Shown: in pieces, positions 11,438-42,196 of the stretch
Layout of the letters: each line of letters begins with the position of its first letter
Numbering within the stretch: the first letter of the stretch is position 1
Assembly (NCBI GenBank): GCA_942493315.1
Contig: OW818690.1
Span: forward strand, 2,759,275-2,823,274
DNA length: 64,000 nt
Direction: 5' to 3'
DNA from: an uncultured Bacteroidota bacterium
GTDB lineage: Bacteria > Bacteroidota > Bacteroidia > Bacteroidales > WCHB1-69
Notes under the pieces: model-generated
What the model was told of the DNA's origin: nothing
Databases searched by the model: none
What the model saw: only the letters and a program-made list of their open reading frames with translations
Program-made: the position numbers and the translations under genes

Positions 11438-12601
11438 ATGGCCAAAAGGAAAAAAAGAAAAATAAATTTTCTTAAACTTTTTAAGTATATAATCTTAATT
11501 ATCAATATTATATGCGCTATTGGTTTATTGTTTACTTTTATTGGACAATATGTTAAACCCTCTTATTCTACCGTCATTGCATTTTCAGGATTAGGGTTTC
11601 CCTATTTATTAATTGTAAATCTGTTTTTTGTTATTTTTTGGTTGTTTTTTAAAGCCAAACTTTCTATTGTTTCGTTAGTTTTAATTTTGATAAATATTAA
11701 TAACATTGATAAATTTTTTCAATTAAATGCATCACCAAAACCTGAAAATTGTGTAAATTGCATTAAAGTGATGAGTTACAATGTGAAACTTTTCGGTTTA
11801 TATAATTCAAACAATGTTCGTGAAAGAATTATTAATAAAGAGAAAGTATTAAATTTTATTGATCAGGAACAGCCCGATATTTTATGTTTACAGGAGTTTT
11901 TTTACGATAAAAGTGGACATTTGAATTTTAATACTTTGGATACCATTGTTTCAATTCTCAACCTAAAAGATGAAAATTACTACTATACCTATTTCCCTTA
12001 TAATCGAAAAAATGAGTATTTTTATGGCTATGCTACTTTTTCAAAGTACAGAATAGTGAATAGTGGAGTCGTATTACTCCCTGATAGTCACTCAATTGCA
12101 GCCACTTTTATTGATTTTAAATATAAAGGAGATACGATTAGAAACTATAATATCCATTTAGCTTCCAACTACTTTGATCCAGATGATGATCAAACCAGTA
12201 AGCAAATTTTAGCTTATGAACAATACGATTCATCATTAAATTCCAGAGCAAAAGTTGTTTACCGAAAAATGACAAAAGCGATCCATAAAAGGGAAATTCA
12301 AGCTCAAATGATTCAAAAACATATCGCTGAATCACCCTACAAAGTGATCGTTTGCGGAGATTTCAATGATCCTCCTTTTGCCTACACCTATAACCATATC
12401 AGTGATGATTTAAAAGACTCTTTCAGAGAGAGTGGCAAAGGAACCGGAAAAACATATCATGGTGATATCTACCCTAGTTTTAGAATTGATTACATCTTAC
12501 ACAACAGCACTTTTAATTCTTACGGGCATACCATTTACACTGATTTAAAAATCTCTGACCACTACCCTATTTCCTGTAACATTTCGCTTATTAAGAAATA
12601 A
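11438..12601 (+). CDS. Endonuclease/exonuclease/phosphatase (EEP) family membrane protein
   Basis: N-terminal TM segments. EEP motifs (MSYNV..., LCLQEF, CGDFND, SDHYPI). Confidence 0.8.
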   Translation: MAKRKKRKINFLKLFKYIILIINIICAIGLLFTFIGQYVKPSYSTVIAFSGLGFPYLLIVNLFFVIFWLFFKAKLSIVSLVLILININNIDKFFQLNASPKPENCVNCIKVMSYNVKLFGLYNSNNVRERIINKEKVLNFIDQEQPDILCLQEFFYDKSGHLNFNTLDTIVSILNLKDENYYYTYFPYNRKNEYFYGYATFSKYRIVNSGVVLLPDSHSIAATFIDFKYKGDTIRNYNIHLASNYFDPDDDQTSKQILAYEQYDSSLNSRAKVVYRKMTKAIHKREIQAQMIQKHIAESPYKVIVCGDFNDPPFAYTYNHISDDLKDSFRESGKGTGKTYHGDIYPSFRIDYILHNSTFNSYGHTIYTDLKISDHYPISCNISLIKK

Positions 12602-23591: not shown

Positions 23592-23622
23592 GGCTAAGGG
23601 CGAAGGGCGAAGGGCGAAGGGG
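23591..23622. repeat. Heptamer tandem repeat AGGGCGA/AGGGCTA
   Basis: gggctaagggcgaagggcgaagggcgaaggggg, starting right after the LuxR-family gene stop. Confidence 0.85.
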
Positions 23623-23697
23623 GATTATGTTTTACATTTTAATACAATTTTTAACAATTTAATAGTTTATCAAATTAAAGATTTCAAAAAAAATTTC

Positions 23698-23705
23698 TAT
23701 CTTTG
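23698..23705 (+). promoter_or_regulatory. -7 promoter box TATCTTTG serving the ATPase cassette
   Basis: TAnnTTTG followed by CAAA, 45 nt upstream of ATG 23750. Confidence 0.5.
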
Positions 23706-23749
23706 CAAAATAATCATGTTATTATGAATTAAAAAAAAATTAATTTTGA

Positions 23750-25081
23750 ATGAATAAGAATCAAATTAGTATTGAACTTAAAAACATAAGATCTGTTAGA
23801 GATGCAAATATTGTTTTTGATGGAATTACTGTAATTACTGGAGAAAACGGCAGTGGAAAGAGTACAATATCAAAATTGACTTATCATCTTTTTCGTACAT
23901 CTATTGAATTTGAAAAGATAGTTGAGGATAAGCTACAGGATGAATTAAAAAGAATTTATAGAAGTTTAGATCAATTATCTAGGGAATTAGAGTATTTTTT
24001 GGATAAAGATGAATATATTAAAATTAGAAATTCATTTAGAAATTTTTATAGATATGAAAATCAACTTAGTCTTTTTGAAGAAGACAATTCGATTTTTTCA
24101 GCAATTGACGCATTAATAAACATTTTTACAAATGAAAATATTAATTTAAAAAATAACAAACAATTATCTCAGCGATTGAAAAGAATTAAAATTATTATAA
24201 GTAATTCGATTCCCACAGATGATTATGAAAAAATAGAGATTCCAGAACTTTTAATTGTACTAAAAAACTTTATTAAGGATCACATCCAACAGACCACAAA
24301 TTATAAAGAAAATAGACCTTTATCAATTTTAAATGAAAAATTGGCTGAAGCTTTCTATGACTCTTCAATAACCAATTCATTTAATATATATGAATATGGA
24401 GTTCCAATAATTGATAGAGATAAAAATAAATTACTGCCAATACATTCAATCCAAAAAGTAGCATATATAGATACTCCAATGATAATTGGAATTGATTTCT
24501 TAGCAGAAAGGGCTCATTGGGATGATATTAATGAATTAATTTCTAATAAAAAAACATATAAATCTGACTCTGAATTAGACTCAATTTTTAAGAATGAAAT
24601 TTTGAAAGGAGATGTTAGCTATAATGAAAATGAAATTTCAAGTCAAACTTTTATTTATAAAAGAGATGATGGAAAGGATTTTGATTTGTTAGAATGTGCC
24701 ACTGGCTTAAAATCATTTAGTTTACTCCAATTGCTATTTAAAAATGGATTTCTCAACAATCAAACTTTACTCATCATTGATGAACCAGAAGTTCATTTAC
24801 ATCCACAATGGATTGTTGAGTATGCAAGACTTATCGTTCTATTTAATAAATATTTGGGAGTAAAGTTTCTCATAGCTAGTCATAATCCAGATATGATTAG
24901 TGCAATAAAATATATTTCAAAAAAAGAAAATTCTTGTAAAGATTTAAACTTTTATTTAGCTACCAAATATAAAAAAACATATACATATAATTACAAAAAT
25001 CTCGGAATAGAGATTGATGAAATTTTCGCTTCATTTAATATTGCTTTAGAAAGAATTGATTTTTATGGACAATCTGAATAA
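23750..25081 (+). CDS. SMC/ABC-type (AAA_15/AAA_21-like) ATPase with a coiled-coil insertion
   Basis: Walker A GENGSGKST. Signature-like ATGLKSFSLLQ. Walker B LLIIDEPEVHLHP. H-loop region IASHNPD. A helical insert of about 250 aa separates the two halves of the ATPase head. Confidence 0.8.
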   Translation: MNKNQISIELKNIRSVRDANIVFDGITVITGENGSGKSTISKLTYHLFRTSIEFEKIVEDKLQDELKRIYRSLDQLSRELEYFLDKDEYIKIRNSFRNFYRYENQLSLFEEDNSIFSAIDALINIFTNENINLKNNKQLSQRLKRIKIIISNSIPTDDYEKIEIPELLIVLKNFIKDHIQQTTNYKENRPLSILNEKLAEAFYDSSITNSFNIYEYGVPIIDRDKNKLLPIHSIQKVAYIDTPMIIGIDFLAERAHWDDINELISNKKTYKSDSELDSIFKNEILKGDVSYNENEISSQTFIYKRDDGKDFDLLECATGLKSFSLLQLLFKNGFLNNQTLLIIDEPEVHLHPQWIVEYARLIVLFNKYLGVKFLIASHNPDMISAIKYISKKENSCKDLNFYLATKYKKTYTYNYKNLGIEIDEIFASFNIALERIDFYGQSE

Positions 25082-25571
25082 CTTAACTTACTGTTCTACA
25101 ACAACTAATAATCACAAAATTGCATCTATTTGTCCTCAATGTGTTCAGAAAATTAATGCTGTATGTATCAAGGATGGTGCTAAACATACTTGTTTTACTA
25201 ATGAAGTTTGTCTTAATATAGATGATTTTGAAACCTTTTTAGCTCAACATGAAAAAAGAGATAAACAAAAAACCATGGATTTCTCTTTTGGAGTTAATAT
25301 CGAAAATAGAAATGAGCAAAAGATGATTTTAGTTGAACTTAGACTAAATTATACTAATTGGCGAAATATTAGCAAAAAAGAACTTGATGATAAAATTAAT
25401 CATTCAAAAGTTATTCTCGGGCATTCTCCTATTATTTCGAATCAATATTATTTCGTTTTCAAATCAGATTTAAAACAGCAAGCTCATAATCACTTAAGAA
25501 GACTATATTTAAATCGAAATTTTGTTTTTGGAGTTGATCTTAATGAATTGAAAAATAATTTTTTTCAATAA
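25065..25571 (+). CDS. Small Cys-cluster protein of unknown function, translationally coupled to the ATPase
   Basis: ATG 25065 overlaps the ATPase stop by 17 nt. N-terminal CPQC-x7-C-x8-C cluster. I recognise no domain. Possible weak D...ExR (MDFSF...ILVELR) nuclease-like pattern. Confidence 0.6.
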   Translation: MDNLNNLTYCSTTTNNHKIASICPQCVQKINAVCIKDGAKHTCFTNEVCLNIDDFETFLAQHEKRDKQKTMDFSFGVNIENRNEQKMILVELRLNYTNWRNISKKELDDKINHSKVILGHSPIISNQYYFVFKSDLKQQAHNHLRRLYLNRNFVFGVDLNELKNNFFQ

Positions 25572-25744
25572 TTTCTATATTCTATTAGATCTATTGATTA
25601 TTTATGATTCAATTATCAAATTAATAACTCAATTTTTTCAACTAAAAAAAGCACAATTTCATTTGAGTTTGTTTGATAATCTTAAGCAAATGTTTATTTT
25701 CAAAAAGACGGCAGCCTTTAAACTGTTGTCTGCTGACTGCTTTC

Positions 25745-27301
25745 TTATTTGCTCCCTTTCATCATTTTAATGAACGGATTGAAATAGTTTTCACCTTTGG
25801 CGACAACGCCGGTGAGACCTTTTCCACCTGTTTTGGAACGTTTGATAGCGCCAAACATCCCTTTTTCGAGTGCTTCGAAAAGACCCTCTTTCACCATATT
25901 ATCTAGTAATTCATGAGCATCGTTCAATACTTTGGCTGCTCTGTTTTTAATAATTCCACCCTCTTTATATTCCACTTCATCACCAATATTTTTCATATTG
26001 TTGAAAATATATTTGGCATTTTCAATCGCTAAATAACGATCCGACATAAATGGGGTATGAATCGCCTCAGTAATCATTCCTAACAGTTGTAATCCCTGCC
26101 CTGTCCAGATGGCAATTTGGTTAAAAAGAGCATCTTGAATTTGACCACGGAAGATGTTTCCTGTCATAAATTTTGTTGGGGGCATATATTTTAGAGGTGC
26201 ATTAGGGAAAATTTCGCGGGTCATTTGAGCCTGAGCCAATTCATAGAGAAAGCCATTTTCGAGTTCAGGATCCATTTCAAAAGCGTGACCTAAACCCATT
26301 TGTTCTTCAGGAATACCAGCTAATTTTGCCAATTGTTCATTGATAAGATCTGAGGCTAAAACGGTATGTGCTTCATCAAATGCATCTGCAGTAGTAAGAT
26401 AGTTATCCTCACCTGTATTGATGATCACACCGGCAAAACCATTGATCACTCTAGAGAAATATTGATCTATTAAAGTTCTTTGAGGATTAATATCTCTAAA
26501 AAGGATACCATAAAGTGCATCGTTCAACATCACATCAAGACGTTCCAAAGCACCCATAGCAGCGATTTCAGGCATACAAAGTCCTGAACAATAGTTACAT
26601 AAACGGATATAACGGCCCACTTCTTCTCCCACTTCATCCAATGCTTTTCTCATGATTTTAAAGTTCTCCTGAGTCGCATAAGTTCCGCCAAAGCCTTCAG
26701 TAGTAGCGCCATAAGGAACATAATCGAGCAAGCTCTGACCGGTAGTACGAATCACTGCAATAATATCAGCACCCTGACGAGCTGCAGCCTGAGCCTGAAC
26801 AACATCTTCAAAGATATTACCGGTTGCCACGATCACGTAAATATAGGGTTTTGAGCCCTCACCAATAGTATTCAGATACTCATTTCTACGGGCAACGTTA
26901 GCTTTGATACGGTCAACAGCAGCATCGATATAAGGTTGAACAGCTTGTTTCACTGCATTCAAGTCGTGAGCAGGAAGTTGGGTAATAGATAGTTGATTAT
27001 CAGCAATTTTTTCAGCAATCTGTTGAGGATTCAAACCGGTTTCCAAAATAGCATTTCCGATATAGTATAAAACGCCTTGACCCAAAACACCATTTTCATG
27101 AATATCATTCACCACCACATTGGGAAGGGGTACTTCATTTATATCGATACCATCTATACCGATTAAGCGACACAAAGTTCGTTCAACGGCAACGGTAGAG
27201 TAATTTTCAACAAATTGTTGCACATCAACTGCAATTTTGTGCGCCAACTCTTTAGCAGCATCCACTTTAGTAAAATCTAGTCCTAACTTACTGTTTCTCA
27301 T
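25745..27301 (-). CDS. kamD: Beta-lysine / D-lysine 5,6-aminomutase alpha subunit
   Basis: Near end-to-end similarity, from memory, to Clostridium sticklandii KamD (VERTLCRLIGIDG, IAVIRTTGQSLLDYVPYGATTEGFGGTYATQENF, CNYCSGLCMPEIAAMGA, GVIINTGEDNYLTTADA). Confidence 0.9.
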   Translation of the reverse strand: MRNSKLGLDFTKVDAAKELAHKIAVDVQQFVENYSTVAVERTLCRLIGIDGIDINEVPLPNVVVNDIHENGVLGQGVLYYIGNAILETGLNPQQIAEKIADNQLSITQLPAHDLNAVKQAVQPYIDAAVDRIKANVARRNEYLNTIGEGSKPYIYVIVATGNIFEDVVQAQAAARQGADIIAVIRTTGQSLLDYVPYGATTEGFGGTYATQENFKIMRKALDEVGEEVGRYIRLCNYCSGLCMPEIAAMGALERLDVMLNDALYGILFRDINPQRTLIDQYFSRVINGFAGVIINTGEDNYLTTADAFDEAHTVLASDLINEQLAKLAGIPEEQMGLGHAFEMDPELENGFLYELAQAQMTREIFPNAPLKYMPPTKFMTGNIFRGQIQDALFNQIAIWTGQGLQLLGMITEAIHTPFMSDRYLAIENAKYIFNNMKNIGDEVEYKEGGIIKNRAAKVLNDAHELLDNMVKEGLFEALEKGMFGAIKRSKTGGKGLTGVVAKGENYFNPFIKMMKGSK

Positions 27302-40818: not shown

Positions 40819-40857
40819 ATTCTTTTTTTAGAGTATGCAAAAATACATTTTTTTTTG

Positions 40858-40865
40858 TAATTTTG
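40858..40865 (+). promoter_or_regulatory. -7 promoter box TAATTTTG driving the riboswitch leader
   Basis: TAnnTTTG located 3 nt before the proposed P1 stem of the riboswitch. Confidence 0.45.
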
Positions 40866-40868
40866 CCA

Positions 40869-41050
40869 TGATTTTCAACAAGGGAATCGGGTGAAATTCC
40901 TGAACAGTTCCCGCTGCTGTAAGTCTCATTAAGTTCTTAGGATTTAGCCACTGTTTTTATTCCAAAAATGGGAAGGCCCTCAAGAGAGACAAGTCAGAAA
41001 ACCTATTGTAAATCAAGCATTAAGGCTTCGGGAAAAAGCTGAAACGAACC
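40869..41050 (+). promoter_or_regulatory. Cobalamin (B12) riboswitch
   Basis: AAGGGAATCGGGTGAAATTCCTGAACAGTTCCCGCTGCTGTAAG matches the conserved GGGAA..GGTGAAA.TCC...CCCGC.GCTGTAA core. Also GCCACTG...GGGAAGGC, a B12-box-like AAGTCAGAAAACCT, and a P1 candidate TGATTT (40869-40874) / AAATCA (41010-41015). Confidence 0.75.
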
Positions 41051-41119
41051 GTTTGTTCCAACTCTTTCCGATTCCAAATTTATTCATCTAACCAATCCAT
41101 TTTGGTTACTAAAAACGAA

Positions 41120-42196
41120 ATGATGAAACGGGAAAATTTTATCAAAAGATTACAAAAATTGATCTTTTTATGTTTTGGAATTGTACTTTTAGCAGTTTCT
41201 TGTGAACCACCTATTGATCCTCCCATTAATCAGGGAGAAAGTGGTATTTATATCCTTAATGAAGGGGGTTTTAATATGAATAACAGCTCTTTAAGTTTCT
41301 TTAATTTTAAAGATCACTCAGTAATTGAAAATATTTTTCTGCAATCTAATAACCGCGGATTAGGGGATGTGGCAAACGATATGAAACAATATGGTAATAA
41401 AATCTACATTGTTGTGAATAATTCCGAAATTATTGAAATTATAAATCTCAAAACTGCTAAATCAATAAAGCAAATCTCACTTACAGGAAAACAACCTAGA
41501 AATATAACTTTTTTTGAAAATAAAGCTTATGTTAGTTGTTTTGATGGTACAGTTGTAAGAATTGACACAACAACTCTTCTAATAGATGGAACCATAACCG
41601 TTGGTTCAAACCCTGAAGGGATCTGTGTCGCCAATAATAAACTATATGTGGCTAATTCAGGAGGATTAAGTTCACCCATCACTTCCAATACAGTTTCTGT
41701 TGTTGATTTGAATAGCTATACAGAATTGAAAAGAATACCGGTTGCAATTGGCCCCAGGATACTTAAAACTGATCAATATGGAGATATTTATGTGTCATGT
41801 ACTGGAAACTATGGGAATATTCCTGCGTCATTTCATCGAATCAATACAATTACAGATGAAACTGTTGAAAATTTTAATTTAGAAGTTCATAATTTTACTA
41901 TCCAGGGAAATTTTGCTTATTTATATTCCTATGATTTTACTGATCAATCTAAATGGTTTAAAGTAATGGATATTTCTACTGAAAACATTGTAAAAGATAA
42001 TTTCATTTCTGATGGTACGCAAATTACTATTCCTTATGGGATAGCAATTGATCCGGTAACCAATTATATTTATATCACTGATGCAGGTGATTATGTGTCA
42101 ACCGGTGATGTATTTTGTTTTAATCAGAACGGAGTTCTTCAGTATCAATTCGAAGCTGGTATTATACCTAATGGAAGTATGGTTTTTAAAAGATAA
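41120..42196 (+). CDS. Surface lipoprotein with a YncE-like beta-propeller (DUF5074-like)
   Basis: Lipobox LLAVSC. Repeated blades of about 40 aa (G..P..I......YV.N.....V..ID). ATG 41120 is preferred to TTG 41102. Confidence 0.6.
   Translation: MMKRENFIKRLQKLIFLCFGIVLLAVSCEPPIDPPINQGESGIYILNEGGFNMNNSSLSFFNFKDHSVIENIFLQSNNRGLGDVANDMKQYGNKIYIVVNNSEIIEIINLKTAKSIKQISLTGKQPRNITFFENKAYVSCFDGTVVRIDTTTLLIDGTITVGSNPEGICVANNKLYVANSGGLSSPITSNTVSVVDLNSYTELKRIPVAIGPRILKTDQYGDIYVSCTGNYGNIPASFHRINTITDETVENFNLEVHNFTIQGNFAYLYSYDFTDQSKWFKVMDISTENIVKDNFISDGTQITIPYGIAIDPVTNYIYITDAGDYVSTGDVFCFNQNGVLQYQFEAGIIPNGSMVFKR

Follow-up and report, generated by a model that had tools for sequence, protein, structure and literature searches.

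A Candidate Two-Gene Anti-Phage System of Bacteroidota That Pairs an ABC ATPase with a Small Putative Nuclease

Genes and Protein Families at the Locus

We analyzed a stretch of 64,000 nucleotides (nt) from an uncultured Bacteroidota bacterium of the Bacteroidales lineage WCHB1-69 (assembly GCA_942493315.1, contig OW818690.1, positions 2,759,275 to 2,823,274 of the forward strand), hereafter referred to as the window, in which two overlapping plus-strand genes encode an ATP-binding cassette (ABC) ATPase of 443 aa and a small partner protein that together form a candidate anti-phage system. The open reading frame (ORF) of the small partner begins with the ATG at 25065 and overlaps the end of the ATPase ORF by 17 nt (25065–25081), as had been proposed in an earlier reading made without database searches (the sequence-only reading). 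It ends with the stop codon at 25569–25571 and so encodes 168 aa and not the 169 aa of that reading, in which the stop codon had been counted. The coordinates of the genes, motifs, and regulatory features are collected in table 1.

The four motifs that the sequence-only reading had picked out in the 443-aa protein (GENGSGKST, ATGLKSFS, LLIIDEPEVHLHP, and ASHNPD) were all located, and their residues vary little or not at all among 40 homologs with identities down to 39%. The elements retained throughout these homologs are the Walker A motif, the signature-like ATGLK, the Walker B/D-loop DEPExHLH, and the H-loop SH.PD. Because these catalytic motifs are invariant, the protein is expected to be a functional ABC ATPase. 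An insert of ~250 aa lies between the Walker A motif and the signature motif. In Pfam the protein matches AAA_15 (e value 4e-16) and AAA_21 (7e-15), and among PADLOC models the best match is HEC-02A (5.4e-25, C-terminal half only), followed by NsnB (3e-20), PtuA (5e-17), and AriA (4e-16), with PD-T4-4_A also matching. These results bear out the earlier suggestion of an AAA_15/AAA_21 type protein akin to the ATPases of defense systems. The solved structures nearest to it by sequence are PtuA (3e-7) and AriA, the match being confined to the Walker B region. At an e value of 1e-10 or less, the ATPase has 1,922 homologs.

A word-indexed homology search recovered just 4 relatives of the small partner, and 22 with a profile as query, a result that alone would falsely suggest a tiny family. 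A profile search run exhaustively over 1.84 billion representatives of clusters formed at 50% identity corrected this picture and yielded 491 cluster representatives at an e value of 1e-3 or less and 239 at 1e-10 or less, nearly all of them 155–185 aa in length. No credible family was found when 147 aligned members were scanned with Pfam and PADLOC and the window protein additionally with NCBIfam, and a search of the PDB sequences with the family profile gave zero matches even at an e value of 10 or less. In public sources these proteins are labeled "hypothetical protein." Matches to DUF1779, a zinc ribbon, and ApaG were below threshold and did not recur within the family, and were set aside as chance. 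No Toprim, DUF4435, DUF4276, or RloB match was found in the window protein or in the summaries compiled for the 147-member family, and no DxD is conserved. The partner is indeed, as had been noted, unlike the TOPRIM, HNH, and RloB effectors, and no Pfam, NCBIfam, or PADLOC model describes it.

All conservation percentages for the small family were taken from the 147-sequence alignment. D72 is present in every sequence (147/147), as is K110 (100%), and D53 (99%), Y9 and T14 (96% each), E56 (91%), R146 (84%), and H17 (82%) are strongly conserved. At position 91 the sequences have either E (87%) or D (13%), at position 93 either K (67%) or R (33%), and at position 114 S or T in 97% of cases. The segments MDFSF, which contains D72, and ILVELR, which contains E91 and R93, are present in the window protein as previously described. 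The D…ExR pattern that they form had been called weak, an assessment that the family alignment overturns. With D72 and [E/D]91-x-[K/R]93 each at 100%, D…(D/E)xK is, as judged from the alignment, the defining signature of the family.

The Cys cluster that had given the small protein its first label, C23-P-Q-C26-x7-C34-x8-C43, is also present in the window copy. Across the family, C23 is usually replaced by Y, F, or H, C34 by I, L, or V, and C43 by L, P, or F, and these three residues are, by this comparison, lineage-specific. Semiconserved are only C10 (63%) and C26 (67%), position 49 is Cys in 17%, and in 50 of the 147 members the N-terminal 52 positions contain a single Cys or none. A zinc-ribbon or zinc-finger reading was rejected because the cluster is not conserved, the family lacking four conserved Cys/His metal ligands, and the label of a Cys-cluster protein falls with it. 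Separately, the partner is longer (260–278 aa) in Xylanibacter/Prevotella loci (L080, 11292–12122; L083, 11292–12095; L084, 11292–12074; and L088, 11214–12050; locus numbers are those of our collection). The C-terminal extension of these proteins matched no Pfam family and could be an added domain.

With only 4 sequences as input, AlphaFold gave a model of the small protein with a predicted local distance difference test (pLDDT) score of 37, which was unusable. The 147-sequence alignment gave an AlphaFold2 model with a pLDDT of 96.4 and a predicted template modeling (pTM) score of 0.90. In this model D72 immediately precedes one β-strand and E91-x-K/R93 closes the strand with which it forms a hairpin, so that the conserved D…(D/E)xK lies at adjacent β-strands, as in the PD-(D/E)xK superfamily. 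The best weak structural matches obtained with Foldseek are nearly all PD-(D/E)xK nucleases: MspJI, Can2, FokI, HamA, PaqCI, and XisH head the PDB matches, and DUF2726, Mrr-like, and MmcB-like proteins head those in BFVD, a database of viral structures. Weak hidden Markov model (HMM) matches among the family members include TnsA-like_N and Hjc (twice each, these being among the Pfam families weakly matched by more than one member), HamA (once), SduA, and type II restriction enzymes. The nucleases HamA (Hachiman), SduA (Shedu), NERD, and Mrr likewise carry D…(D/E)xK on a β-hairpin after an acidic helix, and they are the best yet weak fold or HMM matches of the small protein, none of them significant. 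From the model and these matches we infer that the small protein may be a divergent PD-(D/E)xK nuclease with a restriction-endonuclease fold.

Table 1. Features of the gene pair and its surroundings, in window coordinates
Feature	Position	Strand	Basis or remark
Low-GC cassette	23620..25740	.	Composition profile; flanked by core genes
Promoter block AAAAAAAATTTCTATCTTTGCAAAATAATCA	23686..23716	+	Conserved 31 nt; contains -7 box TATCTTTG
ABC-type ATPase, 443 aa (AAA_15/AAA_21)	23750..25081	+	Pfam, PADLOC matches
Walker A GENGSGKST, residues 31–39	23840..23866	+	G31, N33, G34, G36, K37, S38 invariant in 40 homologs
ABC signature-like ATGLKSFS, residues 317–324	24698..24721	+	A317, T318, G319, K321 invariant in 40 homologs
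Walker B/D-loop LLIIDEPEVHLHP, residues 340–352	24767..24805	+	D344, E345, P346, E347, H349, L350, H351 invariant in 40 homologs
H-loop region ASHNPD, residues 376–381	24875..24892	+	H378, P380, D381 invariant in 40 homologs
Small partner, 168 aa, candidate PD-(D/E)xK-type nuclease effector	25065..25571	+	Unannotated family
D53-x-x-E56, start of helix 52–63	25221..25232	+	Alignment and model
D72, directly before strand 73–79	25278..25280	+	Invariant (147/147)
E91-L-R93, end of strand 84–92, (D/E)xK motif with R	25335..25343	+	Alignment and model
K110-x3-S114, within helix 104–118	25392..25406	+	Alignment and model

Synteny, Distribution, and Genomic Context

We scanned a collection of 185,579 genomes, one per species, and confirmed the pair at at least 377 places. 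Eighty of these were retrieved as loci by ATPase alignment alone, at identities of 33–72% (the other 297 are additional to this set). A small-family ORF lies directly 3' of the ATPase gene in 76 of the 80 loci, degraded remnants of the small gene are found in two more (L063 and L086), and the last two (L013 and L072) stop at a contig edge and hence fall outside the synteny test. With remnants included, the small gene follows the ATPase gene in all 78 loci that can be tested. The ATPase and its small partner are an obligate unit, and the small ORF, with its 491 cluster representatives, is the genuine conserved partner that the sequence-only reading took it to be. The junction between the two genes is an overlap in 42 of 62 loci and a gap of 0–10 nt in another 15, the commonest value being the 17-nt overlap seen in the window, and such overlapping or short junctions fit translational coupling. 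The identities of the two proteins to the window copies co-vary across loci (Pearson r = 0.91), and no partner swapping is evident from these comparisons. No third gene recurs beside the pair: the commonest Pfam family among the 147 nearest neighbors was seen 3 times.

Among the matches listed, the hosts are mainly Bacteroidota (Bacteroidales, Flavobacteriales, Chitinophagales, Cytophagales, and Sphingobacteriales), with scattered copies in Cloacimonadota, WOR-3, Melainabacteria, Acidobacteriota, Treponema, and Firmicutes metagenome-assembled genomes. This wide host spread implies horizontal transfer. The gut genera Bacteroides, Prevotella, Alistipes, and Parabacteroides carry the pair. Flanking genes vary between loci: the pair is near IS110 and PDC-S27 at one locus, near IS66, AbiEii, Mrr, and a UvrD helicase at another, and near an integrase, KilA-N, a nucleotidyltransferase, and a kinase-UvrD fusion at L007. 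About 10–12 of the 147 nearest neighbors are strong PADLOC matches, comprising type I and IIG restriction enzymes, AbiLi, MzaA, and PDC candidates. The pair has the behavior of a movable cassette, and some of its copies lie in defense islands. Several copies are frameshifted or truncated, and decayed copies are common for accessory genes. The sequence-only reading had proposed to examine whether the pair is conserved and whether its homologs sit in defense islands; the pair is conserved and some loci do lie in islands, but many are purely housekeeping in content. In the lineage of the window itself, the syntenic metagenome locus L005 shares the flanks of the cassette, with identities of 86–89% for the pair and 86–97% for the flanking genes, and the cassette is, judging from these values, vertically inherited there.

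Two of the loci contain further genes of note. At L007 (3206–7944), a 1,119-aa protein kinase-UvrD/AAA_11/AAA_12 helicase fusion is encoded together with an overlapping ORF of 470 aa that has no annotation, and the two look like another candidate defense module. At L155 (3514–4797), a second, distinct AAA_21/AAA_15 ATPase and an Imm_superinfect gene lie 5–6 kb upstream of the pair in otherwise housekeeping surroundings.

Within the window, the cassette has a GC content of 0.23–0.27, compared with 0.30–0.44 in its flanks, in agreement with the A/T-richness noted from the sequence. It lies, as had also been described, between a regulator gene and kamD: the upstream neighbor encodes a GerE-type regulator and the downstream, convergent neighbor (25745–27301, minus strand) the lysine 5,6-aminomutase alpha subunit (Pfam Lys-AminoMut_A, 3.9e-273). 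The promoter box that had been proposed for the pair, TATCTTTG (23698–23705) followed by CAAA, is found 45 nt 5' of the ATPase ATG. The consensus of the Bacteroidota -7 promoter is TAnnTTTG, which we take this box to fit. It falls in a block of 31 nt that is the same at 31 of 31 positions in L005, where the spacer on both sides has diverged or been deleted. An identical block within a diverged spacer is good comparative evidence that the pair has a dedicated promoter of the Bacteroidota type. A sigma-70 scan, which does not cover the Bacteroidota -7 promoter type, gave no excess of sites, and a terminator scan detected no intrinsic terminator 3' of the small gene.

A (GGGCGAA)n heptamer tandem repeat at 23592–23622 follows directly on the stop codon of the GerE-type regulator gene at the left edge of the cassette. 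It is expanded to ~8 units in L005 (9876–9950), so its length is variable. To the right of the cassette, L005 has a (CTTCTTA)n heptamer array (~11975–12050) that is absent from the matching spacer of the window (25572–25744). Elsewhere in the window, genes of a lysine-fermentation type (Lys-AminoMut_A, BKACE, and CoA transferase) stand amid the core genes gyrA, SRP54, FolD, and glycogen synthase. A cobalamin riboswitch (40841–41024, plus strand; Rfam RF00174, 84.4 bits, e value 2.4e-19) lies upstream of the ORF at 41102–42196, and the sole other PADLOC signal is one UvrD-type helicase that matches GajB models.

Comparison with HEC-02 and Other ATPase-Plus-Effector Systems

The closest published counterpart in design is HEC-02 (Hma-embedded candidate 02), described in 2024 as an ABC ATPase with a NERD-like PD-(D/E)xK protein (Payne et al., bioRxiv 10.1101/2024.01.29.577857). 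Dickeya HEC-02 was demonstrated to protect Escherichia coli from phages, with both genes needed, and the Dickeya sequences in Table S2 of that study comprise HEC-02A of 342 aa and HEC-02B of 169 aa (bioRxiv 10.1101/2024.01.29.577857). The Dickeya HEC-02A and HEC-02B genes overlap by 4 nt. Like the pair in the window, HEC-02 consists of adjacent co-oriented genes, an AAA_15/AAA_21 ABC ATPase being followed by an overlapping (D/E)xK partner of ~170 aa. Alignment of the ATPase with HEC-02A by hhalign gave a probability of 96% and an e value of 4.6e-9 over 106 columns, from the signature motif to the H-loop, with ATGLKSFS lining up with AEGLRKLA of HEC-02A. The best stretch in the HEC-02A profile of PADLOC is limited to positions 172–295 of 338. 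From these alignments, we regard the ATPase cores of the two systems as homologous. The ATPases differ in length (443 aa in the window, 342 aa in HEC-02A), the insert in the window ATPase being much larger.

The partner proteins are harder to relate. The window protein has no PADLOC match, HEC-02B included, and the PADLOC HEC-02B models match 1 of the 147 small-family members (e value 0.002). We built a HEC-02B alignment of 39 sequences from two plasmid homologs and 50 metagenome loci; compared with it by hhalign, the 147-sequence small family gave a probability of 0.3% and an e value of 0.18. A relaxed hhalign comparison placed four motifs in register (small family/HEC-02B): D53/D23, D72/D43, E91xK93/E56xK58, and K110xxxS114/K78xxxT82. 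Combined into one regular expression, the motifs match 73% of the small family and 92% of the HEC-02B family, as against 1.0% of 976 unrelated ORFs; because the pattern was derived post hoc, this result is no more than supportive. HEC-02B itself has no significant Pfam NERD match, and sequence methods are therefore weak in this fold class. In addition, the small family has an extra conserved N-terminal region of ~30 aa (Y9, T14, and H17) that HEC-02B does not have, and the C-terminal halves have no motif in common, HLEQ…DPHP being found in HEC-02B and QA…R in the small family. The hosts also differ, being mainly Bacteroidota for the window pair and Proteobacteria and Cyanobacteria for the HEC-02 representatives examined. 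On these comparisons, the B component, as tested, keeps the pair out of HEC-02, and PADLOC v2 would not call the locus. We conclude, by analogy of design, that the pair probably works like HEC-02.

HEC-02-like pairs were also found on a Pseudanabaena and a Paracoccus plasmid (L102, NZ_CP112875.1, and L103, NZ_CP115765.1), where they are annotated merely as "ATP-binding protein/AAA family ATPase" and "hypothetical protein." The pair on the Paracoccus plasmid is flanked by a YoeB/Phd toxin–antitoxin pair and an integrase.

Other systems share parts of the same logic. Septu (PtuA with the HNH protein PtuB) and the retron-associated PtuAB likewise combine an AAA_15/21 ATPase with a small nuclease; however, no HNH match was found in the 147 small-family members, and NCBIfam PtuA scores 39.6 bits on the window ATPase against a cut-off of 500. 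PARIS (AriA with the TOPRIM protein AriB) and OLD/Gabija GajA have ATPases of the same clade as that of the window (AriA, 4e-16), whereas the window partner carries no TOPRIM, DUF4435, or RloB signature and is half the size of AriB. PARIS serves as the mechanistic model for an ATPase scaffold that controls a nuclease (PMC11464382). In the case of Menshen (NsnABC), the NsnB model covers nearly the whole window ATPase (residues 7–410, e value 3e-20), but Menshen has three genes, no third gene is conserved beside the window pair, and the small partner matches no NsnA or NsnC model. The sequence-only reading had suggested an undescribed variant of the ATPase-plus-effector theme. This holds for the protein families, which are new, and not for the design, because HEC-02 already occupies that architectural niche.

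Proposed Function, Alternatives, and Significance

Taken together by analogy, the locus is probably a self-contained, translationally coupled two-gene system directed against phages or mobile elements, in which an ABC ATPase would act as sensor and regulator and the small protein as nuclease effector, closest in design to HEC-02. In PARIS, the ATPase scaffold frees a nuclease upon sensing a phage protein, and we propose the following steps by analogy with PARIS, Septu, and HEC-02. The ATPase would oligomerize, probably as a head-engaged dimer or a higher oligomer, bind the small nuclease, and keep it inactive. The large variable insert of ~250 aa may serve as the sensing surface for a phage component or a nucleic-acid structure, and the signal would be relayed through ATP binding or hydrolysis, by which the nuclease is released or activated. 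The freed nuclease could then cut phage or host nucleic acid, so that the invader is destroyed or the infection aborted, and coupled translation would ensure that the effector is never produced without its controller.

Several observations weigh against this proposal. The model of the small protein has just two consecutive strands after the first helix where the canonical fold has three, an order that is atypical in comparison with the PD-(D/E)xK defense nucleases. Foldseek returned no significant match to the model (best e values 0.23 in the PDB and 0.03 in BFVD), the window copy has R and not K in its ExK motif, and hhalign comparisons of the small family with HEC-02B as a single sequence, 3 sequences, or 39 sequences gave e values of 0.06–0.29 and were never significant. 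Outside the cassette, the 64-kb window contains housekeeping genes and no further defense or mobile genes, and surroundings of housekeeping genes only, without a defense island, are found at many other loci as well. The neighborhood data suggest an enrichment of defense genes near the pair, an estimate that is semiquantitative and made with no matched genomic background. Finally, the viral contigs of IMG/VR yielded no close relatives, and the 72,556 plasmids of PLSDB yielded no matches.

We entertain, as a tentative possibility, that the small partner founds an effector family without detectable relationship to any described domain, being either a very divergent nuclease or another enzyme, and that with the insert-expanded ATPase it makes up a largely Bacteroidota-specific defense system unseen by PADLOC, Pfam, and NCBIfam. 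The opposite case, that the locus is a divergent member of HEC-02 in which the small protein is a true HEC-02B homolog, the ATPase is an insert-expanded HEC-02A, and only the sequence divergence is new, appears unlikely. HEC-02A is the best PADLOC match, with the hhalign probability of 96%, and the partner sizes (168 and 169 aa), the gene order, and the overlapping junction agree. The four motifs share their register and have similar spacing, one member in 147 matches a HEC-02B model, and, as HEC-02B lacks a Pfam NERD match, the same absence in the small family is uninformative. Yet the profile–profile comparison of 147 with 39 sequences gave a probability of only 0.3%, the HEC-02B models miss 146 of the 147 members, the ATPase match is limited to the stretch between signature motif and H-loop in a protein that is 100 aa longer, the N-terminal ~30 aa are missing from HEC-02B, and no motif is common to the C-terminal halves. 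Less likely still is a defensive pair whose small protein is not a nuclease and instead acts as an adaptor, as a sensor, or through other chemistry that uses the conserved D, E, and K residues. The missing significant fold or family match, the noncanonical strand order, and the conserved N-terminal Y9/T14/H17 patch, which has no PD-(D/E)xK counterpart, are what such a protein might show, but metal-dependent phosphodiesterases typically have just such an invariant acidic/acidic/basic set on a hairpin and a Lys on a helix, and the weak matches cluster in the PD-(D/E)xK clan across three independent libraries.

We consider it very improbable that the pair is a selfish addiction module of the toxin–antitoxin kind, or a module for the maintenance of mobile elements, and not a dedicated anti-phage system. 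Its patchy distribution, its variable contexts, and the transposases or integrases that occasionally adjoin it would suit such a module, and the Pfam AAA_21 label refers to AbiEii and type IV toxin–antitoxin systems. Here, the null results for plasmids and viral contigs speak the other way, as do the vertical inheritance of the cassette together with its flanks in the lineage of the window and the fact that the nearest characterized relatives are defense systems. A housekeeping role in DNA repair or recombination of the RecF/RecN/SbcCD type has, in our judgment, almost no likelihood. Matches to SMC_N, Rad50, and RecF exist but are weak and confined to the Walker A region, as are those to the NCBIfam models for RecF, RecN, Rad50, and SbcC, and all scores are far under the family cut-offs (recF, 24.4 bits against 172; recN, 15.6 against 408; Rad50, 26 against 1,087; Pfam SMC_N, 31.1 against 40). 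The sequence-only reading had named clustering with a housekeeping family such as RecF or RecN as a counterargument; by these scores, the ATPase is not a member of those families. Moreover, a pair confirmed at at least 377 places among the 185,579 species genomes is sporadic, and its copies have no conserved genomic context, are in some cases decayed, and have atypically low GC.

ABC-ATPase-plus-effector modules are among the commonest designs in prokaryotic immunity, and to our knowledge the characterized examples come nearly all from Proteobacteria and Firmicutes. The design described here is already known from a published and validated counterpart, HEC-02; what is new is an effector family without a model in Pfam, NCBIfam, or PADLOC and an insert-expanded ATPase clade centered on Bacteroidota. 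If the small family were added to defense-finding tools, a gap in the annotation of Bacteroidota from the gut and the environment would be filled. As a compact system of 1.8 kb, the pair would lend itself to studies of how phage sensing is tuned by differences in the ATPase insert and of how a minimal putative nuclease of ~165 aa is restrained. If the pair is indeed a Bacteroidota defense system with a new effector family, it could bear on resistance to crAss-like and other Bacteroidota phages in gut genera.

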